Origin: Escherichia phage MirsaeidiM_Esher2
Length of the DNA stretch: 40,547 nucleotides
Sequence record: PQ464628.1
Direction: 5' to 3' (one strand)
Positions 1-40,547 of this stretch are shown here, one piece after another. A program made the translations under genes and the position numbers. The notes beneath the pieces are model-generated. The model had not been told where the DNA came from. It saw only the letters and a list, made by a program, of their open reading frames with translations, and ran no database searches. Every line of letters begins with the position of its first letter. Within the stretch, counting starts at the first letter, position 1.

Positions 1-86
1 TCATTACTATATGTAGTGGCCTTTATGGTTAACACTAACTAGTGGAGGAGACTCTACGTGAAATCTGATAAACCGGGAGGGCAACT

Positions 87-3789: not shown

Positions 3790-3819
3790 TTGACAAGATG
3801 TAACGATAAGATGTAATAT
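3790..3819 (+). promoter_or_regulatory. sigma70 early promoter (A3-like): TTGACA-18-TAATAT
   Basis: -35 TTGACA 3790..3795, -10 TAATAT 3814..3819 preceded by TG; surrounding sequence resembles T7 A3 (TTGACAACATGAAGTAA...TACCACATG). Confidence 0.6.
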
Positions 3820-3942
3820 TTACCACATCGAAACAACGGTGATGACCAACACTGAAATGGTCTACCTGAAGTCCTCTGACTGAAGGGAATGCTCTTTAAC
3901 AATCTGGATAAACTCTTAATGTGCGCCGATAGCGACTAACTA

Positions 3943-3990
3943 CAGGGCCTTTGAGTCTACATCTGAAGGCCCTGACTGATAGCCACTAAC
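3943..3990 (+). promoter_or_regulatory. 9-bp-stem hairpin plus conserved box CCTGACTGATAGCCACTAAC (RNase III R0.3-like site candidate)
   Basis: Stem 3943..3951 / 3966..3974 is perfectly complementary; no T-tract follows; immediately upstream of the first early ORF. Confidence 0.5.
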
Positions 3991-3997
3991 TTAAAGG

Positions 3998-4252
3998 ATG
4001 GACACTATGAAACACTTAAGCACAATCACTAATCGCAATGAAGTATTCGTGAACACTAAAGGTTATGCGTGGATTCAGCTTAAAGAGATGAGAGGAGCGC
4101 GTCACCGTGTGGTAGTGCGCAAGGTATCAAGCAAGCAGTTCAGCAACTACAGCGTCGATACTGTGCGTATAGACAACGAGACATACCTGATAGACGCGCA
4201 GATAACCGTGAGTCCTACAGTGGGCGTCTCAGCTCCTTATTTCGCTAACTGA
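3998..4252 (+). CDS. hypothetical early protein (84 aa; basic)
   Basis: First ORF downstream of the sigma70 promoters; SD AAGGA favours the second ATG at 4007; no similarity to T7 proteins I can recall. Confidence 0.55.
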   Translation: MDTMKHLSTITNRNEVFVNTKGYAWIQLKEMRGARHRVVVRKVSSKQFSNYSVDTVRIDNETYLIDAQITVSPTVGVSAPYFAN

Positions 4253-4265
4253 GAGTGATTAACTA

Positions 4266-4307
4266 CAGGTCGTTAGAATCATAGCGGCCTGACTGATAGT
4301 CACTAAC
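4266..4307 (+). promoter_or_regulatory. hairpin plus second copy of box CCTGACTGATAGTCACTAAC
   Basis: 7-bp stem 4266..4272 / 4285..4291 (one G-U); box 4288..4307 is 19/20 identical to 3971..3990; directly upstream of the ocr-like gene. Confidence 0.45.
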
Positions 4308-4335
4308 ACATAATTAACTTTGAGAGGATATAACT

Positions 4336-4839
4336 ATGGAACGTAATGCTAACGCATACTATGAGCTGCTGGCTGCAACCGTTGAGGCATTTATCGAGCG
4401 TATTCAGTACGACCATCTGACTCAAGATGATGACTACAGCGATGCGCTGCATGAGGTCGTAGACGGTCAGGTTCCACACTATTACCACGAGATTTTTACG
4501 GTGATGGCTGCTGATGGTATAGACCACGAGTTCGAAGACTCTGGGCTGATGCCTGAAACCAAGGACGTAACGCGTATACTACAAGCTCGCATCTATGAGG
4601 CGCTTTATAACGATGTGTCTAATAGCTTGGATGTAGTCTGGTTTGAGGCTGAAGAGGCAGACGAAGAGGATGAATATTGGGTAGTTGACGCTAAAACAGG
4701 CGCAATAATTGTGCAAGCTGTAGCTCTTGAGGTCGCTACTGCATGTGCCAAGGTCAACTATGCAATAGGTCGCCACCTGAAGGTGGAAGACATCAATGAT
4801 AACGTAGTGTTCGACCCTGCGGCTGAGGACTGCGAGTGA
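4336..4839 (+). CDS. 0.3: Ocr-like DNA-mimic anti-restriction protein with C-terminal extension
   Basis: 167 aa; residues ~40-95 ([43 protein letters not shown]) match recalled T7 Ocr; acidic; about 50 aa longer than the 117-aa T7 Ocr. Confidence 0.8.
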
Positions 4840-4988
4840 TGGTAACTTATGGTCTCTGCCAGCACCACGTCGCCAACGCCCGGCTTATGGTCAAGACCGG
4901 GCGGTTAACCCATGATGAGACTATGCGTCTCCTGAAGGTGGTCTACAAGCGCCGCAAGCGTATTCACGACAGTTTGCACGCTGAGTGA
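4839..4988 (+). CDS. hypothetical small basic protein (49 aa)
   Basis: ATG overlaps the ocr stop (TGATGG); open 49 codons; below ORF-track cutoff; Cys/His-containing, basic C-terminus. Confidence 0.35.
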   Translation: MVTYGLCQHHVANARLMVKTGRLTHDETMRLLKVVYKRRKRIHDSLHAE

Positions 4989-4995
4989 TAAACGA

Positions 4996-5021
4996 GAGGT
5001 CATCGACTGATAGGTGGCCTC
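4996..5021 (+). promoter_or_regulatory. hairpin GAGGTCA / TGGCCTC with GACTGATAG in the loop
   Basis: 7-bp stem incl. one G-U pair; shares the AGGTCA/TGGCCT core with hairpins at 8711, 16060 and 40490. Confidence 0.4.
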
Positions 5022-5054
5022 AAAGATTACCACTTACATTAATAGGGGTTAACT

Positions 5055-5338: not shown

Positions 5339-5598
5339 TGAAAACCGTATACATTAACAAACCATCTAGCCATAGCCGTGTAGAGCAAATAGAGCGTGAC
5401 ATGTTCTTACATCGCCGCATGAGGGCTGAGGGCCATAAGTACGAACTGATGAGTCTGGCGTTTGGTGGACGACCGATCACTGACGATGGTAAACTTTTAG
5501 TCTCAGGCTGGAAGGCGATAGACCAACGGTCAACCATCAAGCACACGACTCACGGTGACTTCAGCCATCTCCACGCTAACCAACTGATATGCAAGTGA
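5338..5598 (+). CDS. hypothetical early protein (86 aa)
   Basis: Translationally coupled to the upstream ORF; occupies the position where T7 has gene 0.7 but is far too short for a kinase. Confidence 0.5.
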   Translation: MKTVYINKPSSHSRVEQIERDMFLHRRMRAEGHKYELMSLAFGGRPITDDGKLLVSGWKAIDQRSTIKHTTHGDFSHLHANQLICK

Positions 5599-5603
5599 TT
5601 ATG

Positions 5604-5626
5604 ACTTAACTATCACTATAGGACTC
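5604..5626 (+). promoter_or_regulatory. phage-RNAP promoter-like sequence directly upstream of the RNAP gene
   Basis: ACTTAACTATCACTATAGGACTC; identical to the phiOR-like site over 20 nt (5603..5622 = 2390..2409). Confidence 0.55.
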
Positions 5627-5695
5627 AAGGTCTAAGACTCCAAGTGAAAGACCAAAGAGACTTTAAGTGAAAGACTAATAACAAGGACTTTAAGT

Positions 5696-8377
5696 ATGAG
5701 CATCATCTCTATTGATAAACACGACTTCTCTGATGTGTCTAACACCATTGAGCCGTTTAACCTGCTGGCTGACCACTACGGGCAAGACCTTGCAGTCAAG
5801 CAGCTTCAGCTTGAGCATGAGGCATACACTGAAGGCGAGCGACGTTTCATCAAGAACCTTGAGCGACAGACTGAGCGCGGGGAACTGGCAGACAATCAGG
5901 TCGCCAAGCCTTTGATGCAGACTCTTGTACCTAAGATTGCGCAAGCAGTCAAGGAGTGGCACGAAGGCCAAGACGGGAAGCTGTCAACCTCTCGTCCTAG
6001 CGTAGCGTTCACCATGTTGAGCACTGAAGAGAAGGCCGTCAAGGACCGCTCTATGCGCATCTCCTGTGAGTCCGCTGCGGTTATCATACTGAAGGTCATA
6101 CTCTCCAAGCTGGTCAAGCCCGAAGGGATACCGATTACACCTATGGCCTCCGCGATAGGTCGCACACTTGAGGACGAAATCCGCTTCGGTCGCATCCGTG
6201 ACAAAGAGAAAGAGCACTTCAAGAAGGCGATAGCTGATAACCTGAATAAGCGGGCCGGGGCGTCCTACAAGAAAGCCTACATGCAAGCGGTCGAGGCGTC
6301 CATGCTGGAGCAAGGCCAACTGGAAGATGCGTGGGGGACTTGGAGTCCTACAGAGGCTGTCCACGTTGGCATCAAGATGCTTGAGATTGTCATCCAGTCA
6401 ACACAACTGGTCGAGCTTAAGCGTTACGGTGCTGGCAATGCAGCGGCTGATGTCGAGATGGTCCACCTGTCAGACTTCTGGGTCAAGAAGATGGCACAAC
6501 GTGGATTCAGCCTTGCGGGTATCGCACCAGTCTATCAGCCTTGCGTCGTTCCACCTAAGCCGTGGACGGGTGTCGTAGGCGGTGGTTACTGGGCCAAAGG
6601 TCGCAGACCATTACCGCTGATTCGCTTAGGCTCTAAGTCTGCGGTAGCACGTTACGAAGACGTGTACATGCCTGAAGTCTATGAAGCTGTGAACATCATT
6701 CAGAATACACCTTGGAAAGTGAACAAGAAGGTTCTGGACGTGGTGAACATGGTCGAGAAGCTGAACAACACGCCTATTGATGACATCCCTCAGATGGAAC
6801 CGCTGAAGCCTGAGGACTATGCGGGTGAGACTGAGGAGGAACTCAAGGCATGGAAGAAAGCTGCTGCTGGTATCTATCGCCGCGAGAAGGCCAGACAGTC
6901 ACGCAGGTTGTCACTGAGCTTTATCGTTAACCAAGCGAACAAGTTCTCTCAGTTCAAGGCTATATGGTTCCCGTACAACATGGACTGGCGCGGTCGCGTC
7001 TACGCTGTGCCGATGTTCAACCCTCAGGGTAACGACATGCAGAAGGGTCTCCTGACTCTGGCAGTTGGCAAGCCTATTGGTGCTGACGGTTTCAAATGGC
7101 TAAAGGTACACGGTGCAAACTGCGCGGGTGTCGATAAAGTCACCTTCGAGGAGCGCATCAAGTGGGTGGAAGACAACCACGACAACATCATGGCTGCTGC
7201 TAAAGCACCTATGGACAGCATTGAGTGGTGGGGAAAGTTAGACTCTCCGTTCTGTTTCCTCGCGTTCTGCTTCGAGTATGCTGGCGTAATGCGCCATGGC
7301 CTGTCTTACTCCTGCTCGCTGCCGATAGCGTTCGATGGGTCCTGCTCTGGGATTCAGCACTTCAGCGCGATGCTTCGTGACCACATCGGTGGACATGCGG
7401 TAAACCTGACGCCTTCCGGTAAAGTCCAAGACATCTACCGCATCGTGTCCGACCGCATTGAGGAGGAGCTTAAAGTCCTGCTGGTTAACGGCACGGACAA
7501 CGAGATGGTAACTCACGAGGACAAGAAAACTGGTGAGATTACCGAGCGTCTCAAGCTGGGGACACGAGAGCTGGCCCGTCAGTGGCTGACCTACGGTATG
7601 TCACGCAAGGTTACTAAGCGCTCAGTCATGACTCTGGTCTACGGGTCGAAAGAGTACGGCTTCGCAGACCAAGTTTACGAGGACATCGTGATGCCCGCGA
7701 TTGACTCAGGGTCTGGCGCTATGTTCACCGAACCAAGCCAAGCGTCCCGCTTCATGGCTAAGATGATTTGGGAAGCTGTGAGCGTGACCGTAGTTGCTGC
7801 GGTAGACGCTATGAAGTGGCTTCAAGGTGCTGCCAAGCTGCTGGCTGCTGAAGTGAAAGACAAGAAGACTGGAGAAATCCTGAAGCCTTGCCTTCCGGTA
7901 CACTGGGTCACGCCTGATGGGTTCCCGGTCTGGCAGGAATACCGCAAGAAGGATACCACGCGTCTGAACCTGATGTTCTTAGGGTCATTCAACCTTCAGC
8001 CTACCGTCAACAAAGGCACGAAGAAAGAGCTGGATAAGCACAAGCAGGAGTCAGGCATTAGCCCGAACTTCGTCCACTCACAAGATGGTAGCCACCTCCG
8101 CAAGACTGTAGTCCATACTCACCGCAAGTATGGCGTGATGTCGTTCGCAGTGATTCACGATAGCTTCGGGACCATCCCGGCTGACGCTGAGTATCTGTTC
8201 CGTGGGGTCCGTGAGACTATGGTAGAGACCTACCGCGACAACGATGTGCTGCTTGACTTCTACGAGCAGTTTGAATACCAGCTTCACGAGAGCCAGCGCG
8301 ATAAGTTGCCAGAGCTTCCGAAGAAAGGTAAACTGAATATCGAAGACATCTTGTCTTCAGACTTTGCATTCGCCTAA
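5696..8377 (+). CDS. 1: single-subunit DNA-directed RNA polymerase (T7 gp1 homolog)
   Basis: 893 aa; colinear with recalled T7 RNAP (PFNLLADHYG, GRIRD, QPCVVPPKPWTG, DGSCSGIQHFSAM, HDSFGTIPADA, ending SDFAFA). Confidence 0.97.
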   Translation: MSIISIDKHDFSDVSNTIEPFNLLADHYGQDLAVKQLQLEHEAYTEGERRFIKNLERQTERGELADNQVAKPLMQTLVPKIAQAVKEWHEGQDGKLSTSRPSVAFTMLSTEEKAVKDRSMRISCESAAVIILKVILSKLVKPEGIPITPMASAIGRTLEDEIRFGRIRDKEKEHFKKAIADNLNKRAGASYKKAYMQAVEASMLEQGQLEDAWGTWSPTEAVHVGIKMLEIVIQSTQLVELKRYGAGNAAADVEMVHLSDFWVKKMAQRGFSLAGIAPVYQPCVVPPKPWTGVVGGGYWAKGRRPLPLIRLGSKSAVARYEDVYMPEVYEAVNIIQNTPWKVNKKVLDVVNMVEKLNNTPIDDIPQMEPLKPEDYAGETEEELKAWKKAAAGIYRREKARQSRRLSLSFIVNQANKFSQFKAIWFPYNMDWRGRVYAVPMFNPQGNDMQKGLLTLAVGKPIGADGFKWLKVHGANCAGVDKVTFEERIKWVEDNHDNIMAAAKAPMDSIEWWGKLDSPFCFLAFCFEYAGVMRHGLSYSCSLPIAFDGSCSGIQHFSAMLRDHIGGHAVNLTPSGKVQDIYRIVSDRIEEELKVLLVNGTDNEMVTHEDKKTGEITERLKLGTRELARQWLTYGMSRKVTKRSVMTLVYGSKEYGFADQVYEDIVMPAIDSGSGAMFTEPSQASRFMAKMIWEAVSVTVVAAVDAMKWLQGAAKLLAAEVKDKKTGEILKPCLPVHWVTPDGFPVWQEYRKKDTTRLNLMFLGSFNLQPTVNKGTKKELDKHKQESGISPNFVHSQDGSHLRKTVVHTHRKYGVMSFAVIHDSFGTIPADAEYLFRGVRETMVETYRDNDVLLDFYEQFEYQLHESQRDKLPELPKKGKLNIEDILSSDFAFA

Positions 8378-8607: not shown

Positions 8608-8681
8608 CAGACCTACAGTTACTGGCCTTGTGGCTAGGAGCACTCGCAGTATTCACTTTAATCCAACGCAGAAGAGGTTAA

Positions 8682-8704
8682 CCTAAACTATCACTATAGG
8701 ATTA
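8682..8704 (+). promoter_or_regulatory. phage-RNAP promoter (CCTAAACTATCACTATAGGATTA)
   Basis: Consensus 23-mer; upstream of the gene 1.1-like ORF. Confidence 0.8.
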
Positions 8705-8747
8705 GACTCAAGGTCATGACTCAAAGTCGTGGCCTTCATGATTAACC
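8705..8747 (+). promoter_or_regulatory. RNase III-type hairpin candidate (R1.1-like)
   Basis: Upper stem AGGTCA 8711..8716 / TGGCCT 8730..8735 with 13-nt loop; motif TAGACTCAAGGTCAT...GTGGCCTTYATGRTTA shared with 16049.. and 40481.. Confidence 0.45.
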
Positions 8748-8777
8748 CTAAATAAACACTACTGGAGATTTAACCTT

Positions 8778-8957
8778 ATGTATCAGAATACTATCAACTT
8801 CGAGCGCATCCGTGAACGTCAGCAGACTGAAGGTTACATTCCGAAGGGTCGCAAGCTGAACAAGACTAAACGTGGTGGTGGCGTGAAGGGTGCTTTCCGT
8901 AATGCTGAAGGTAAAGACTCTCTGGTCAACCAAGAGAAATACTTCGTAGGAGCATAA
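8778..8957 (+). CDS. 1.1: small basic protein, T7 gp1.1-like (59 aa)
   Basis: ATG with GGAG upstream; contains KGRKLNKTKR as recalled for T7 gp1.1; below ORF-track cutoff. Confidence 0.6.
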   Translation: MYQNTINFERIRERQQTEGYIPKGRKLNKTKRGGGVKGAFRNAEGKDSLVNQEKYFVGA

Positions 8958-10265: not shown

Positions 10266-10300
10266 AACCCAGTGGTCTTATGACTGCTGGGTTTCTTTGC
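10266..10300 (+). terminator. candidate intrinsic terminator after ligase (TE-like)
   Basis: Stem AACCCAG 10266..10272 / CTGGGTT 10287..10293 followed by TTCTTTG; same position as T7 early terminator TE. Confidence 0.45.
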
Positions 10301-11445: not shown

Positions 11446-12144
11446 ATGGCTAAAGAGCAACTGAAGACTTTCACCACTCCGGTAGCTGGTATCGTTGAGC
11501 CTTACGCATGGCTTAACAAAGCAGACACCAAGTTTAACGAGCGTGGTGAGCATAAGGTTAACCTGACTTTCAGTCTGGATGACCAGAAGGTCCGTAAGAT
11601 GATTGATGTCTTACAGAAGATTCACGACGATGCGTATGCGAAAGCACTCGCAGACCACGAGAAGAACCCACCTCAGGTTCAGCGTGGCAAGAAGCCTATC
11701 GAGCCGCGCGAAGGCGATATGCCGTGGATTGAGAATGGGGACGGTACTGTTACCCTGAAGTTTAAATGCTTTGCGTCTTACCTTAAAGACGGCAAGTCAG
11801 AGCCTATCGTATTACGGTTCTACGACACCGATGCTAAGTTAATCCGTGACGTCCCGAATATTGGCGCTGGCTCAAAGCTGAAGGTCAAGTTTAAAGTCCT
11901 GCCGTTCAAGTGGAACGCTGCGACTGGTGCAAGCGTTAAGCTCCAGCTTGAGTCCTGCCTTCTGGTAGAACTGAAGGAGTGGAAAGGTGATGGTGCGGGT
12001 GGCGATGGTGGCTGGGGTGATGATGAAGACCTCGGTACTGGCTACAAAGCGTCAGCCGATGGTGACTTCGGGTCTGATGACTTCGGTGACGATGGTTCCG
12101 AAGGTGGTTCCGAGTCCAACTCTGGTGGCGATTACGACTTCTAA
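11446..12144 (+). CDS. 2.5: single-stranded DNA-binding protein (T7 gp2.5 homolog)
   Basis: 232 aa; GSKLKVKFKVLPFKWNAATGASVKLQLES and acidic Gly/Asp-rich tail ending DYDF, as in T7 gp2.5. Confidence 0.95.
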   Translation: MAKEQLKTFTTPVAGIVEPYAWLNKADTKFNERGEHKVNLTFSLDDQKVRKMIDVLQKIHDDAYAKALADHEKNPPQVQRGKKPIEPREGDMPWIENGDGTVTLKFKCFASYLKDGKSEPIVLRFYDTDAKLIRDVPNIGAGSKLKVKFKVLPFKWNAATGASVKLQLESCLLVELKEWKGDGAGGDGGWGDDEDLGTGYKASADGDFGSDDFGDDGSEGGSESNSGGDYDF

Positions 12145-12599
12145 TGGCCCAATGGTCTGCAAAACGGGGGCACTCTGTGGGTGCCTACCGCTCTGGACTT
12201 GAAGCCAAGAACCAGCAGTGGCTGGAACAGAACGGCGTCAAAGCGGAGTACGAAAGCCATTATATCAACTATGTGATTCCGGCTTCCGACCACAAGTACA
12301 CACCAGATTTTATCCTTCCCAACGGTATCATCGTGGAGACCAAAGGTATCTTCGATAGTGATGACCGTAAGAAGCACCTTCTGGTACGAGAACAGCACCC
12401 AGAGTTAGACATCCGGTTCGTGTTCTCAAGTTCCCGCTCCAAGTTATACAAAGGGTCTCCGACCACGTATGGCGCATGGTGCGAAAAGAACGGCTTTAAA
12501 TTTGCCGATAAATTCATCCCGGTTGAGTGGCTGCGAGAGGCGACTGTACGTCTGCCTTCTGGTATACTCATTCCCAAGAAGAAAGGAGTTAAGTTATGA
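12144..12599 (+). CDS. 3: endonuclease I, Holliday-junction resolvase (T7 gp3 homolog)
   Basis: 151 aa; YVIPASDHKYTPDFILPNGIIVETKG...DDRKKHLLVREQHPELDIRFVFSS matches recalled T7 gp3. Confidence 0.95.
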   Translation: MAQWSAKRGHSVGAYRSGLEAKNQQWLEQNGVKAEYESHYINYVIPASDHKYTPDFILPNGIIVETKGIFDSDDRKKHLLVREQHPELDIRFVFSSSRSKLYKGSPTTYGAWCEKNGFKFADKFIPVEWLREATVRLPSGILIPKKKGVKL

Positions 12600-15865: not shown

Positions 15866-16048
15866 ATGGAGGGTTACATTCTAATGTTACGAAAACTTAA
15901 AGCTCGCTACCATCGGTTCATGTACAAATGGTGGAGTGACGAAGCAACCTGCCTGTCCAACATTCTGGGAGACCAAAGGTTCGACTCCGAGGCGTGGAAG
16001 AGAGCTAACCGGAAGTTTATGTATCACTTCTTGCGTACAGACTTCTAG
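15866..16048 (+). CDS. hypothetical protein (60 aa; may start at 15884)
   Basis: Second ATG at 15884 has GGAGGG 9 nt upstream; position corresponds to T7 genes 4.3/4.5. Confidence 0.45.
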
Positions 16049-16096
16049 GTCTAGACTCAAGGTCATTCATAGCGAGTGGCCTTTATGATTAGACTA
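16049..16096 (+). promoter_or_regulatory. RNase III-type hairpin candidate upstream of DNA polymerase gene
   Basis: Upper stem AGGTCA 16060..16065 / TGGCCT 16077..16082, 11-nt loop; shares the motif seen at 8705.. and 40481.. Confidence 0.45.
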
Positions 16097-16112: not shown

Positions 16113-18284
16113 ATGTTTGACATTAAGAGTATCTGGGGTTCTGACATCGAGACCAACGGTCTCCTTGATACAGTCTCCCAGTTTCACTGTGGGGTCCTGA
16201 TTAACGCCGAGTCGAATGAGACCCTTAAGTACGGGGTAGCTCCGATGGTCGGTATCGTCGGTGGCTTCAAAGAGTATGTTCATAAAGTGGAAGAGATTGC
16301 CGCATCACCTGATGGTATGCTGGTATTCCATAACGGTATCAACTATGACGTCCCGGCTATAGACAAGCTGAAGCGTTTGTACTTTGGGAAACGCTTTAAC
16401 TTCCCGAAACATAAGATGATTGATACCTTGGTGCTGGGACGCTTGATGTATCCAAACATTAAGTTCTCAGACATGGGCGCAGTGAAAGCTGGTCGTCTTC
16501 CACCTAAGATGATGGGACGCCAGTCTCTTGAGGCTTGGGGCTATCGTCTCGGTGAGATGAAAGGTGAGTACAAACACGATTACGTTGCCAAGTGCAAGGC
16601 TGAAGGCATCGAATATAAGGCTGGGGACGAATGGTTGTTCCCGTCTCAGGAGATGCTGGACTATAACGTTCAAGACGTTGTGGTCACACTGGCGTTGTTC
16701 AAGAAGTTCCTGACTGACAAGTATTACTTCCAGTCTGAACAGTTCGCTTTCGAACAGATTTATGCGTTGCGTCTGGAACACGATGCTGCGTGGACCTGTG
16801 CGAAGATGGAGCGTAACGGCTATCCGATGAACACCGAGATGGTCGAAGGCTTATATCGTGAACTCACCGTCAAACGTGCGGAGCTGCTGGACAAGCTGCG
16901 TTCGACTTTCGGCAGCTGGTACGCACCAAAGGGAGGAAAGGAGTTCTTCAAGCACCCACGGACAGGCAAGGACCTTCCGAAGTATCCGAGAGTCGTGTAT
17001 CCTAAGGTCGGTGTCATCTTTAAGAAGCCGAAGAACAAAGCTCAACGCTTAGGTCTTGAACCTTGTGAACTCGATACGCGAGACACGATGGAGGGAGCAC
17101 CATTCACGCCAATCACTTACGTTGAGTTTAATCCGGGAAGCGGAGACCACTTAGCGAAAGTATTGATGGAGCGTGGCTGGGAGCCTGTGGACTTCACTGA
17201 CACAGGGAAACCTGTAGTCGATGACGAGACGTTGGAACACGTTAAGTTACCAGACGCAGAGGCTCAGGCTTGCGTAGAGCTGGTCCGTGAGTATCTGGTA
17301 GTCCAGAAGCGAATCGGTCAGGCGGCTGAAGGTAAGAACGCATGGTTGAAACTTGTAGGTCCAGACGGACGTATGCACGGTTCAATCAACCCTTGTGGAG
17401 CAGTAACCGGACGTGCGACCCATAGTTCACCAAACATGGCTCAGGTCCCGGCTAACGGTGCTCCGTATGGTGAGACTTGCCGTGGTGCTTTCGGTGCAGC
17501 GTGGAACAAGAAGGATGGCAAGCCAGACCCTTGGATTCAAGTAGGTGTGGATGCTTCAGGTCTTGAGCTTCGTTGTCTGGGGAACCGAGCGGCTCCGTTT
17601 GATGGTGGCGACTATGCGAAGACTGTGGTCGAAGGTGACATCCACTGGGCCAACGCAGTCAACGCTGGGTTAGCACCTAACGTCCCACGCGACAAGTCCA
17701 GCCACGACCACGATGCTTTCCGTAACAACGCCAAGACGTTCATCTATGCGTTTCTGTATGGTGCAGGTGCCGCTAAGATTGGACTGATTGTAGGCGGTGG
17801 TAAGAAGGAAGGCGCGGCCCTGATGAAGAAATTTATTGAGGGTACACCAGCTATCAAGGACCTGCGAGAGGCTGTCCAGAACACGCTCATCTCCGAGTCC
17901 AAGTGGGTAGATGGTGAGAACATCGTGAAGTGGAAACGCCGCTGGCTTAAAGGTCTGGACGGTCGACGCATTCACATCCGGTCTCCACACTCAGCACTTA
18001 ACGCCTTGCTTCAAGGTGATGGTGCGGTGGTCTGCAAGCACTGGATAGTCGAGACCGAGCGTATGCTCGAAGAGGCCGGGTATGTCCACGGCTGGGAAGG
18101 AGACTTCGCGTACATGGCTTGGGTCCACGATGAGCTACAGATTGCGTGTCGCACTCAGGAGATTGCCGAAGAAGTCGTCAAGATTGCTCAACTTGCTATG
18201 CGTAAGGTGGGCGAGTTCTATAACTTTAAATGTGTGTTAGACACGGAGGGTAAAATTGGACCAACGTGGAAAGAATGCCATTGA
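16113..18284 (+). CDS. 5: DNA polymerase (T7 gp5 homolog, family A)
   Basis: 723 aa; FHNGINYDVPA, AVTGRATHSSPNMAQ, NAKTFIYAFLYGAG, AYMAWVHDELQ, C-terminal GKIGPTWKECH match recalled T7 gp5. Confidence 0.97.
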   Translation: MFDIKSIWGSDIETNGLLDTVSQFHCGVLINAESNETLKYGVAPMVGIVGGFKEYVHKVEEIAASPDGMLVFHNGINYDVPAIDKLKRLYFGKRFNFPKHKMIDTLVLGRLMYPNIKFSDMGAVKAGRLPPKMMGRQSLEAWGYRLGEMKGEYKHDYVAKCKAEGIEYKAGDEWLFPSQEMLDYNVQDVVVTLALFKKFLTDKYYFQSEQFAFEQIYALRLEHDAAWTCAKMERNGYPMNTEMVEGLYRELTVKRAELLDKLRSTFGSWYAPKGGKEFFKHPRTGKDLPKYPRVVYPKVGVIFKKPKNKAQRLGLEPCELDTRDTMEGAPFTPITYVEFNPGSGDHLAKVLMERGWEPVDFTDTGKPVVDDETLEHVKLPDAEAQACVELVREYLVVQKRIGQAAEGKNAWLKLVGPDGRMHGSINPCGAVTGRATHSSPNMAQVPANGAPYGETCRGAFGAAWNKKDGKPDPWIQVGVDASGLELRCLGNRAAPFDGGDYAKTVVEGDIHWANAVNAGLAPNVPRDKSSHDHDAFRNNAKTFIYAFLYGAGAAKIGLIVGGGKKEGAALMKKFIEGTPAIKDLREAVQNTLISESKWVDGENIVKWKRRWLKGLDGRRIHIRSPHSALNALLQGDGAVVCKHWIVETERMLEEAGYVHGWEGDFAYMAWVHDELQIACRTQEIAEEVVKIAQLAMRKVGEFYNFKCVLDTEGKIGPTWKECH

Positions 18285-24425: not shown

Positions 24426-24448
24426 ACTAAACTATCACTATAGGGAGA
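24426..24448 (+). promoter_or_regulatory. phage-RNAP promoter, best consensus (ACTAAACTATCACTATAGGGAGA)
   Basis: +1..+6 GGGAGA; transcript 5' end can form an 8-bp stem; upstream of the major capsid gene. Confidence 0.85.
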
Positions 24449-24550
24449 CCAAGAGACAGACTCAAGGTTTCCCTATTACTTCAGTCCATACGGATTGGGC
24501 GCACAGTAAGTAATATACTTTATCTTTCAATTGAATAGGAGAATTATCAT

Positions 24551-26588: not shown

Positions 26589-28945
26589 TGCCGCTTATTA
26601 CTCAGTCAATCAAGAACCTTAAAGGTGGCATTAGCCAACAGCCTGATATACTTAGGTTCTCAGACCAAGGCGAGGCACAGGTTAACTGCTGGTCATCCGA
26701 GAGTGATGGACTCCAGAAGCGTCCACCTACAGTCTTCAAGCGACGTCTTAACATCGACGTTGGAAGCAGCCCTAAGTTCCACCTGATTAACCGTGATGAG
26801 CAGGAGCAGTATTACATCGTGTTCAACGGGTCCAACATTCAGGTAGTCGACTTGAGCGGTAATCAATACTCAGTTTCAGGTGCGGTAGACTACGTTAAGT
26901 CGTCCAACCCGCGAGATGACATCCGTGTCGTTACCGTTGCAGACTATACGTTCATCGTGAACCGTAAGGTTGTCGTTAACGGTGGAAGCGAGAAGTCACA
27001 CTCTGGTTATAATCGTAAAGCTCGTGCTTTAATTAACCTGCGTGGTGGACAGTATGGTCGCACCCTTAAGGTAGGAATCAACGGAGGCGTTAAGGTTTCG
27101 CATAAGCTGCCAGCAGGTAATGATGCCGAGAATGACCCACCTAAGGTGGATGCTCAGGCCATCGGTGCAGCTCTGAGAGACCTTCTTGTTGCTGCTTACC
27201 CTACCTTCACTTTCGACCTTGGGTCTGGATTCCTGCTAATCACAGCTCCTTCAGGGACCGATATTAACTCAGTGGAGACGGAGGATGGCTACGCTAACCA
27301 GCTAATAAGCCCAGTCCTAGACACTGTGCAGACAATCTCTAAACTACCTCTTGCCGCTCCTAATGGGTATATCATTAAGATTCAAGGTGAGACAAACAGT
27401 AGCGCCGATGAATACTACGTGATGTATGACTCCAACACTAAGACGTGGAAGGAGACAGTGGAGCCGGGAGTTGTCACTGGGTTCGATAACACCACAATGC
27501 CACACGCCCTGGTACGACAATCTGATGGCTCCTTTGAGTTCAAGGCTCTGGACTGGTCTAAGCGTGGTGCTGGTAATGATGACACAAACCCTATGCCTAG
27601 CTTCGTGGATGCTACGATTAACGATGTGTTCTTCTACAGGAACAGGCTAGGGTTCTTGTCAGGCGAGAACGTAATCATGAGCCGTTCAGCCAGCTACTTT
27701 GCGTTCTTCCCTAAGAGTGTGGCGACACTGAGTGATGATGACCCTATTGATGTAGCTGTAAGTCACCCTCGAATCTCAATCCTTAAGTATGCCGTTCCGT
27801 TTAGCGAGCAGCTACTACTTTGGTCGGATGAGGTTCAGTTCGTGATGACAAGCTCTGGTGTCCTTACCTCGAAGTCTATCCAGCTTGATGTAGGCTCAGA
27901 GTTTGCCCTAGGTGACAATGCCAGACCGTTCGCTGTAGGACGCTCAGTCTTCTTCTCAGCTCCTCGTGGGTCATTCACCAGCATTAAGCGATACTTCGCT
28001 GTAGCTGATGTGTCTGATGTGAAGGATGCAGATGATACAACTGGTCACGTACTGTCCTACATCCCTAACGGGGTGTTTGATATTCAAGGTACAGGGACTG
28101 AGAACTACATCTGCGTCAACTCTACAGGTGCATACAACCGTATCTACATCTACAAGTTCTTGTTTAAGGACGGCGTACAGCTTCAAGCCTCTTGGTCACA
28201 CTGGGAGTTCCCTAAAGATGATAAGATTCTTGCGTCTGCTTCTATTGGCTCTACCATGTTCATCGTTCGTCAGCACCAAGGAGGGGTAGACATTGAGCAC
28301 CTTAAGTTCATCAAGGAGGCAACTGACTTTCCGTCAGAGCCATATAGACTCCATGTTGACTCCAAGGTGTCTATGGTCATCCCAATTGGCTCGTTTAATG
28401 CTGACACATATAAGACTACGGTTGACATTGGTGCTGCTTATAGCGGTAACGCTCCGTCTCCCGGTCGGTACTATCTGATTGACAGTCAGGGTGCTTATTT
28501 AGACCTTGGGGAATTAACCAGTATCTCTACTGTGATTACCCTCAACGGCGATTGGTCAGGACGTACAGTGTTCATCGGACGGTCCTATCTGATGTCCTAC
28601 AAGTTCTCACGGTTCCTGATTAAGATTGAAGATGATAGTGGCACTCAGTCTGAAGACACTGGTCGTCTACAGCTTCGTCGGGCTTGGGTCAACTACAAGG
28701 ACACTGGCGCTCTGAGACTCATTGTCAGAAACGGTGAGCGAGAGTTCGTTAACACCTTTAATGGGTACACCCTTGGTCAGCAAACCATAGGGACTACTAA
28801 CATTGGTGACGGGCAGTATCGCTTCGCTATGAATGGTAACGCATTAACCACGAGTCTAACCTTAGAGTCCGACTATCCTACCCCAGTGTCAATCGTTGGA
28901 TGTGGCTGGGAGGCGTCATACGCTAAGAAAGCTCGTTCCGTCTAA
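26588..28945 (+). CDS. 12: tail tubular protein B (T7 gp12 homolog)
   Basis: 785 aa; ATG overlaps gp11 stop (TAATG); size and position as T7 gp12. Confidence 0.93.
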   Translation: MPLITQSIKNLKGGISQQPDILRFSDQGEAQVNCWSSESDGLQKRPPTVFKRRLNIDVGSSPKFHLINRDEQEQYYIVFNGSNIQVVDLSGNQYSVSGAVDYVKSSNPRDDIRVVTVADYTFIVNRKVVVNGGSEKSHSGYNRKARALINLRGGQYGRTLKVGINGGVKVSHKLPAGNDAENDPPKVDAQAIGAALRDLLVAAYPTFTFDLGSGFLLITAPSGTDINSVETEDGYANQLISPVLDTVQTISKLPLAAPNGYIIKIQGETNSSADEYYVMYDSNTKTWKETVEPGVVTGFDNTTMPHALVRQSDGSFEFKALDWSKRGAGNDDTNPMPSFVDATINDVFFYRNRLGFLSGENVIMSRSASYFAFFPKSVATLSDDDPIDVAVSHPRISILKYAVPFSEQLLLWSDEVQFVMTSSGVLTSKSIQLDVGSEFALGDNARPFAVGRSVFFSAPRGSFTSIKRYFAVADVSDVKDADDTTGHVLSYIPNGVFDIQGTGTENYICVNSTGAYNRIYIYKFLFKDGVQLQASWSHWEFPKDDKILASASIGSTMFIVRQHQGGVDIEHLKFIKEATDFPSEPYRLHVDSKVSMVIPIGSFNADTYKTTVDIGAAYSGNAPSPGRYYLIDSQGAYLDLGELTSISTVITLNGDWSGRTVFIGRSYLMSYKFSRFLIKIEDDSGTQSEDTGRLQLRRAWVNYKDTGALRLIVRNGEREFVNTFNGYTLGQQTIGTTNIGDGQYRFAMNGNALTTSLTLESDYPTPVSIVGCGWEASYAKKARSV

Positions 28946-28952
28946 CTTATTG

Positions 28953-29002
28953 AAGGGCCTATAGATTTACCTTAACTATCACTATAGGGACTATAGGCCC
29001 TT
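28953..29002. repeat. perfect 12-bp inverted repeat (AAGGGCCTATAG / CTATAGGCCCTT) enclosing the phi13 promoter
   Basis: Arms 28953..28964 and 28991..29002 are exact reverse complements; in read-through RNA this forms an RNase III-type hairpin (R13-like). Confidence 0.6.
28970..28992 (+). promoter_or_regulatory. phage-RNAP promoter (CCTTAACTATCACTATAGGGACT)
   Basis: Consensus; upstream of gene 13. Confidence 0.8.
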
Positions 29003-29021
29003 AAGGTTATAAGGAGACTTT

Positions 29022-40217: not shown

Positions 40218-40477
40218 CGCAGATGGACTTAGAGAAGTTCCTCTTAATTCTGGATACTGAACGTGCTCGACTCATGCTGCAAGACCTGCGGGATGACACT
40301 AAGCGTTCACCTCAGCTTTACAACGCCATCGAGAAGCTACTGGCTCGTCACAACTTTGTGCTAAGCAAGGTGTCAGTTGACGAGAAGACGCTCGCTGATA
40401 TGGAGGCCCTGAACGCAGAGTATGATAAGGTGCTTTCAGCGACTGAGGATAATGACACAGGGTATGGTGTTCAATAA
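40214..40477 (+). CDS. 18: terminase small subunit / DNA maturation protein (T7 gp18 homolog)
   Basis: 87 aa; RSPQLYNAIEKLLARH matches recalled T7 gp18; ATG overlaps holin stop; SD AGGAGG. Confidence 0.85.
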   Translation: MTQMDLEKFLLILDTERARLMLQDLRDDTKRSPQLYNAIEKLLARHNFVLSKVSVDEKTLADMEALNAEYDKVLSATEDNDTGYGVQ

Positions 40478-40528
40478 GTGTTAGACTCAAGGTCATTACT
40501 ATATGTAGTGGCCTTTATGGTTAACACT
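40477..40528 (+). promoter_or_regulatory. RNase III-type hairpin candidate upstream of Rz (R18.5-like)
   Basis: Lower stem AGTGTTA 40477..40483 / TAACACT 40522..40528; upper stem AGGTCA 40490..40495 / TGGCCT 40509..40514; 13-nt loop. Confidence 0.5.
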
Positions 40529-40547
40529 AACTAGTGGAGGAGACTCT
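40493..40547. repeat. 55-nt duplicate of window positions 1..55 (circular assembly overlap)
   Basis: Exact identity read directly. Confidence 0.95.

Follow-up and report, generated by a model that had tools for sequence, protein, structure and literature searches.

The window analysed here is the whole 40,547-nucleotide sequence of Escherichia phage MirsaeidiM_Esher2 (PQ464628.1), a complete, circularly assembled genome of the T7 group that is K1F-like (Kayfunavirus). A 15-kb stretch of it is 93-95% identical to Kayfunavirus coliphages, including Pipis, vB_EcoP_F and K1F. All large open reading frames (ORFs) are carried by the + strand, and the phage promoter consensus, ..ctaaACTATCACTATAGG, is present in ten copies. 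Bases 1-55 are an exact duplicate of bases 40493-40547, that is, a 55-bp assembly overlap of the circular contig, so that the unit length is 40,492 bp. Non-coding DNA separates gene 19 from the early promoters, and in it lie two perfect short inverted repeats, TAACTATAGG/CCTATAGTTA at 2306-2354 and CTAAGGTCAGT/ACTGACCTTAG at 2861-2901, which may be linked to the genome ends or to the concatemer junction.

Three short intergenic segments of this genome contain related hairpins, which are numbered here as sites 1 to 3. Site 1 is located between a phage promoter and a homologue of gene 1.1 (ORF 8778-8957), whose product has a KGRKLNKTKR block in common with T7 gp1.1. The start of this promoter, placed at G8699 by the T7 promoter convention, falls within the 5' arm of the lower stem of site 1. 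Site 2 is located directly before gene 5 (DNA polymerase, ATG at 16113), 26 nt ahead of its start, and the stop codon of an upstream 60-aa ORF (16046-16048) abuts its stem, as in T3 R4.7. Site 3 is located between gene 18 (stop codon 40475-40477) and the Rz-like gene 18.5 (87-536, past the circular junction), and its first base is the last base of the gene 18 stop codon; gp18.5 of the window is 52% identical to that of T7. The features are as follows.

8678..8700, + strand: phage RNA polymerase promoter (..ctaaACTATCACTATAGG), from the consensus copies, with the T3 annotation as a parallel
8697..8750, + strand: site 1, predicted R1.1-type RNase III processing hairpin (motif, fold, alignment to R1.1 of T7 and T3, covariance model 62.0 bits, E 3e-12)
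8697-8705/8742-8750, + strand: lower stem of site 1, with one A.C mismatch
8706-8709/8737-8741, + strand: internal loop of site 1, ACUC opposite CAUGA
8710-8720/8726-8736, + strand: upper stem of site 1, with the apical loop at 8721-8725
U8739/G8740, + strand: predicted cut in site 1, from the alignment with T7 (CCUUUAU↓GAUU)
16048..16095, + strand: site 2, predicted R4.7-type hairpin (motif, fold, covariance model 61.1 bits)
16048-16054/16089-16095 and 16059-16068/16074-16083, + strand: lower and upper stems of site 2
ACUC opposite UAUGA, + strand: internal loop of site 2
U16086/G16087, + strand: predicted cut in site 2, from the alignment with T7
40477..40528, + strand: site 3, predicted R18.5-type hairpin (motif, fold, covariance model 65.8 bits, E 4e-13)
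40477-40484/40521-40528 and 40489-40499/40505-40515, + strand: lower and upper stems of site 3
ACUC opposite UAUGG, + strand: internal loop of site 3
U40518/G40519, + strand: predicted cut in site 3, from the alignment with T7

An earlier, sequence-only reading of this DNA had equated the three positions with those of R1.1, R4.7 and R18.5 of T7, and this correspondence holds. On the transcribed strand, each hairpin follows a stop codon and precedes gene 1.1, 5 or 18.5, and the three are syntenic with T3 R1.1, R4.7 and R18.5; in T7, gene 4.7 intervenes before gene 5.

The repeated motif on which that reading was based is borne out as well. The block TAGACTCAAGGTCAT has exactly three exact matches in the window (8703-8717, 16052-16066 and 40482-40496), all on the + strand, which is the gene strand, and the bipartite pattern AAGGTCAT-N(9-11)-GTGGCCTT occurs in three copies against an expectation of 0.00 in 100 shuffles. 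The shorter string ACTYAAGG occurs in 20 copies on both strands of the whole window, against 2.8 expected, which far exceeds the number of hairpin copies. As to the extents of the elements, the full hairpin spans read from the sequence are 8697-8750, 16048-16095 and 40477-40528; the previously given limits 8705..8747 are about 2 nt off, and the other two pairs include flanks. The third hairpin had also been described as continuing into positions 1..36. There is no such continuation: positions 1-36 duplicate the 3' part of site 3 in the 55-bp overlap, and because 1-55 repeats 40493-40547 the third hairpin is complete at the end of the window. The break point of the contig is inside this hairpin.

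The predicted RNA folds of sites 1, 2 and 3 have free energies of -20.2, -19.4 and -23.4 kcal/mol; the corresponding z-scores are -4.65, -2.82 (a modest value) and -5.30. All three sites share one fold, with 7-9 bp in the lower stem, 10-11 bp in the upper stem, an internal loop between them and an apical loop of 5 nt. The internal loop, read from the sequence, is asymmetric in all three, with 4 nt (ACUC) opposite 5 nt ((C/U)AUG(A/G)), and it is the place where the scissile bond is predicted. The upper and lower stems together form two coaxial helices of about 20 bp, as in R1.1-type signals, in both the minimum free energy and the centroid folds, and the covariation described below agrees with them. 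A U-G wobble had been noted in every upper stem; in fact each upper stem contains two U.G pairs, at the fifth and eighth pairs, and the fifth-pair U.G is kept in 15 of the 17 T7, T3 and window sites aligned below. In addition, one G.U pair tops the lower stem in sites 1-3.

Stable intergenic hairpins immediately after stop codons might also act on the RNA polymerase of the host or the phage, as terminators or attenuators of transcription. This interpretation is hardly credible here: the sites lack the U-tract that follows the GC-rich hairpin of an intrinsic terminator, their tails being UUAACCC, UUAGACU and UUAACAC, a terminator scan gives no match at any of the three, and the homologous elements of T7 and T3 are processing sites, not terminators. 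Moreover, a separate terminator-like hairpin with a U-rich tail is present elsewhere, after the ligase gene. This element (about 10266-10300) is a GC-rich 12-bp hairpin followed by UUUCUUUG, which the simple terminator scan misses; it probably represents the early terminator TE, annotated at the equivalent place in EcoDS1.

For comparison with characterized sites, we use the genomes of T7 and T3. The core CUCAAGGUC…GUGGCCUUUAUGAUU is common to the window sites, to T7 and to the annotated stem-loops of T3. In the T3 record (AJ318471), ten stem-loops are labelled "RNase III recognition site", and the motif is found in seven of them. In T7, AAGGTC...GTGGCCTT is found at 1441, 5861, 6421 and 13867, and these matches end 3 nt before what we take to be the cleavage coordinates of R0.5, R1.1, R1.3 and R4.7. 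Since no RNase III features are listed in the T7 GenBank records examined, the T7 coordinates used are those reportedly given in the 1983 work of Dunn and Studier, and the T3 annotation is consistent with them. An Rfam scan of the whole window at the gathering threshold matches no family.

We aligned 17 sites (three from the window, seven from T7 and seven from T3), which gives the consensus AGTGnTAnACTCAAGGTCAT..GTGGCCTTTATGATTAnCATT; in both this alignment and the model scores below, the window sites share the conserved core of the experimentally defined T7 and T3 sites. In their internal loop and in the first eight pairs of the upper stem, the hairpins are identical to T7 R1.1. The resemblance is closest for site 2, whose complete 10-bp upper stem (AAGGUCAUUC/GAGUGGCCUU) and internal-loop strands (ACUC/UAUGA) are identical to those of T7 R1.1, so that the differences are confined to the apical loop and the lower stem. 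T7 R1.1 is the standard test substrate of Escherichia coli RNase III. According to a published description, this RNA of 60 nt lies between genes 1 and 1.1, contains an asymmetric 4/5 internal loop and is cleaved at its primary site both in vivo and in vitro (PMC6121014).

The covariance and fold analysis that the sequence-only reading had proposed as a check supports RNA hairpins on both counts. Across the 17 sites, 93.2% of the cells are paired in the two-helix structure, a figure that falls to 30-48% if the 3' partners are shifted by 1-3 columns; 11 of the 19 pairs change on both sides, and the covariation score is reached by no shuffle. The lower stems of the window sites covary with each other (GGAUUAG/UUAACCC, GGUCUAG/UUAGACU and GUGUUAG/UUAACAC). 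A covariance model built from this alignment gives the three window sites the scores listed above, compared with 42-70 bits for the T7 and T3 training sites, and recovers the held-out R6.5 sites of T7 and T3 at 42.8 and 41.1 bits, respectively. When the T7 and T3 genomes are searched with the model at E<1, there is no match outside the reported (T7) or annotated (T3) site positions. On the reverse strand, the window sites score at most 12 bits, against 61-66 bits for the + strand, as is expected if G.U pairs, and hence the RNA, matter.

The same elements are found in related phages. A scan of IMG/VR with the motif only (AAGGTC-N8-20-GTGGCCTT) yields mostly chance matches (among the matches listed, 5 of 80 loci are confirmed by the model), and therefore loci anchored on the RNA polymerase gene are used instead. 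The resulting 21 IMG/VR loci, whose RNA polymerases are 78-99% identical, contain 87 sites, every one of which is on the gene (+) strand. Pairing in these 87 sites is again 93%, in an alignment that is fitted to the model and so leans towards the structure; over the two alignments, 11-12 pairs covary. In blastn searches, the site 3 hairpin matches 769 phage records, mainly of Klebsiella, Escherichia, Salmonella and Yersinia phages of the T7 subfamily. The site 2 orthologue of CR44b (11784-11839) is separated from gene 5 by an inserted HNH endonuclease gene, 7.7B (11851-12252).

These data also bear on the question of whether the repeats act as DNA, for example as points of recombination or module exchange, as targets of homing endonucleases or as replication signals, with the RNA fold being incidental. 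With an identical 15-nt block at each of three loci, homologous exchange is conceivable, and the position of the CR44b endonuclease gene would fit such a role. However, pairing relies on conserved G.U pairs, each of which would be an A.C mismatch in the opposite strand, the model scores are strongly asymmetric between the strands, the stems covary with pairing kept, and the related matches are all on the transcribed strand. Given this G.U dependence, strand asymmetry and covariation, a DNA-level role is unlikely, and we assign it very little weight.

The three hairpins described so far are real, but the family is larger than the three members originally proposed, with at least six in the window. 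When the covariance model is run with its filters off, it detects three further members on the + strand, all of them in the early region, that the sequence-only reading had missed (E1 to E3). They have a core like that of T7/T3 R1 (ACAGGUC...GGCCUGA) and the same fold architecture, with z-scores of -3.3 to -4.6, and each has an orthologue in K1F.

3929..3991, + strand: E1, the weakest member (26.9 bits, E 9e-4; dG -20.5, z -3.34)
U3977/G3978, + strand: predicted cut in E1
4252..4308, + strand: E2, R0.3/R1-like, core ACAGGUC...GGCCUGACUGAU (43.2 bits, E 1e-7; dG -23.8, z -4.63)
U4294/G4295, + strand: predicted cut in E2
4982..5038, + strand: E3, at an R0.5-like position (37.4 bits, E 3e-6; dG -20.8, z -3.50)
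A5024/G5025, + strand: predicted cut in E3

E1 has a sigma-70-like promoter (3790-3819) on one side and the first early ORF (3998) on the other, E2 is located between an 84-aa ORF (stop codon 4250-4252) and the ocr-like gene 0.3 (4336-4839), and E3 starts at the stop codon of ORF 4836-4988. The K1F orthologues of E1, E2 and E3 are at 707-769, 1030-1086 and 1766-1822, respectively. K1F has the same six sites, the three originally reported ones being nearly unchanged.

A possible seventh site is a hairpin of another type before gene 13.

28940..29018, + strand: possible R13-like site (dG -27.6, z -3.28)

Here, a perfect 12-bp stem (AAGGGCCUAUAG/CUAUAGGCCCUU, 28953-28964/28991-29002) encloses the phage promoter before gene 13; at the DNA level it is a perfect 12-nt inverted repeat (AAGGGCCTATAG/CTATAGGCCCTT), the only perfect short-range one of this length in the window. 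The lower stems, CUUAU/AUAAG and GUCU/AGAC, overlap the ribosome-binding site (Shine-Dalgarno) of gene 13. The hairpin is conserved in K1F and CR44b, and its position is like that of R13 in T7 and T3. However, the covariance model scan of the window does not detect it, and its membership in the family is therefore tentative. Note that, because the hairpin encloses the promoter, only read-through transcripts would contain both arms.

Counterparts of R1, R1.3, R3.8 and R6.5 were not found in the window by the model, by folding or by a half-motif scan. Directly upstream of the RNA polymerase gene there is a phage-type promoter followed by the half-motif ACTCAAGGTC (5596-5640), at the position where T7 has its RNase III site R1. 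The segment 5610-5700, which contains this half-motif after the promoter and before gene 1, was rejected as a site, with a z-score of -1.31 and no model score. No canonical 3' half-motif occurs elsewhere in the window, and around the promoter before gene 6.5 no hairpin is formed (z -0.50). Another hairpin, GGGAGACC..GGUUUCCC at 24443-24473, is located at the inferred +1 of the capsid-gene promoter, where a 58-nt stretch has a dG of -24.2 and a z-score of -4.5; it presumably resembles the T7 phi10 leader and the R3.8 stem.

Taken with the core sequence and the synteny, which are consistent with the earlier view of a T7-type family at T7 positions, these results indicate that the hairpins are very probably processing signals for the host RNase III, orthologous to R1.1, R4.7 and R18.5 of T7 and T3, and accompanied by three weaker signals in the early region. 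That transcripts of this phage are cleaved, at exactly which bonds, and with what consequence for mRNA stability, we infer by homology.

RNase III engages double-stranded RNA over about two turns of the helix. Two sets of pairs have been described as recognition elements: a proximal box of 4 bp (G-C, A-U/U-A, A-U, A-U/U-A) and a distal box of 2 bp (U-A and U.G), in which the U.G is stringently required (PMC1540722). We place the distal box at pairs 9 and 8 of the upper stem, as inferred from the text of that paper and the sequence of the 28-nt product. Under this mapping, the wobble noticed in the sequence-only reading would be a known recognition determinant. With the boxes so placed, sites 2 and 3 would match T7 R1.1 at all mapped positions, including the distal U-A/U.G, and site 1 would have G-C/U.G, that is, G-C in place of U-A at pair 1. 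In a minimal substrate, a change of distal-box pair 1 to G-C weakens binding (PMC1540722).

The proposed mechanism is as follows. In polycistronic + strand transcripts, each element would fold into a quasi-continuous double helix of about 20 bp, consisting of the lower stem, the 4-nt/5-nt asymmetric internal loop and the upper stem of 10-11 bp. The upper stem would supply the proximal-box and distal-box pairs, including the U.G, for recognition by E. coli RNase III, and the internal loop would allow only a single phosphodiester on the 3' side to be cut, its predicted location being CCUU(U/C)AU↓G(A/G)UU. The upstream mRNA would then end in the upper-stem hairpin, which would protect it from 3' exonucleases, and the downstream mRNA would begin with a 5'-monophosphate at a defined point 26-60 nt ahead of the start codon. 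This is in line with the properties known for such substrates, in which internal loops limit RNase III to a single phosphodiester and the 3' hairpin of the product shields it from 3'-to-5' exonucleases (PMC1540722). T7, which has ten such sites, can grow without RNase III (PMC6938266), so that the sites may be dispensable and probably tune mRNA stability and expression.

A related possibility is that the hairpins are bound but not cut, and serve as internal mRNA stabilisers, polymerase pause sites or uncoupled RNase III binding sites. Binding without cleavage is known from engineered R1.1 variants with a bulge-helix-bulge or with G-C at proximal-box position 4 (PMC1540722). We consider this very improbable in the present case, since none of these known uncoupling changes is present in the hairpins, and their internal loop and first eight upper-stem pairs are those of the cleaved T7 R1.1.

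The observation is real, but elements of this type are textbook material, already known and ordinary, and the new content is at the level of annotation only, with nothing new biologically. RNase III sites are not annotated in the records of K1F (two records), CR44b or EcoDS1. In the literature searched on K1F or Kayfunavirus and RNase III, nothing was found that discusses such sites or gives transcript-end or cleavage data. The practical value is correct annotation of RNase III sites for K1F-like therapeutic phages; the predicted transcript boundaries for genes 1.1, 5 and 18.5 are useful for engineering such phages. The T7 processing signal, with what would be the distal-box U.G, is conserved across the subfamily.

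One further idea, which rests on folds and position only and which we regard as improbable, is that phages of the K1F group run a processing map that is re-wired relative to that of T7. Such a map would contain only six or seven sites, with gene 1 preceded not by a site but by a phage promoter and a decayed half-motif. The gene 13 hairpin, which encloses a promoter and pairs with the ribosome-binding site, would cause read-through transcripts to be cut or translationally masked, and the promoter-proximal ones would be translated freely.

Among known systems, the cellular and lambda substrates of RNase III (rRNA precursor stems, the lambda N leader and the rnc leader) are likewise irregular double helices of about two turns acted on by the same enzyme (PMC1540722). 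In contrast to the present hairpins, they share no sequence with the family, and several of them are cut on both strands. R1.1 of T7, and also R0.5, R1.3, R4.7 and R18.5, have the same core (CUCAAGGUC..GUGGCCUU(U/C)AUG(A/G)UU), both stems and the 4/5 internal loop, and the intergenic placing relative to genes 1.1 and 18.5 is the same. Differences, through compensatory changes, are seen in the apical loops and the lower stems; against the ten sites of T7, six or seven are detectable in this phage; and T7 R4.7 precedes gene 4.7, which is absent here. The promoter-enclosing hairpins R13, R6.5 and R3.8 of T7 and T3 resemble the hairpin at 28940-29018, which encloses a promoter just upstream of gene 13, but the stem sequence of R13 is unrelated, and the likeness is positional and architectural only. 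In T3 (AJ318471), the sites before genes 1, 1.3, 3.8 (as named in the T3 record) and 6.5 have no detectable counterpart in this phage. On the other hand, R1.1, R4.7 and R18.5 of T3 have the same motif, and stop codons overlap their lower stems; R4.7 is directly ahead of gene 5 and R18.5 is between genes 18 and 18.5; and the phage promoter phi1.1 (5984-6006) overlaps the 5' foot of R1.1 (6003-6053), just as the promoter does at site 1.
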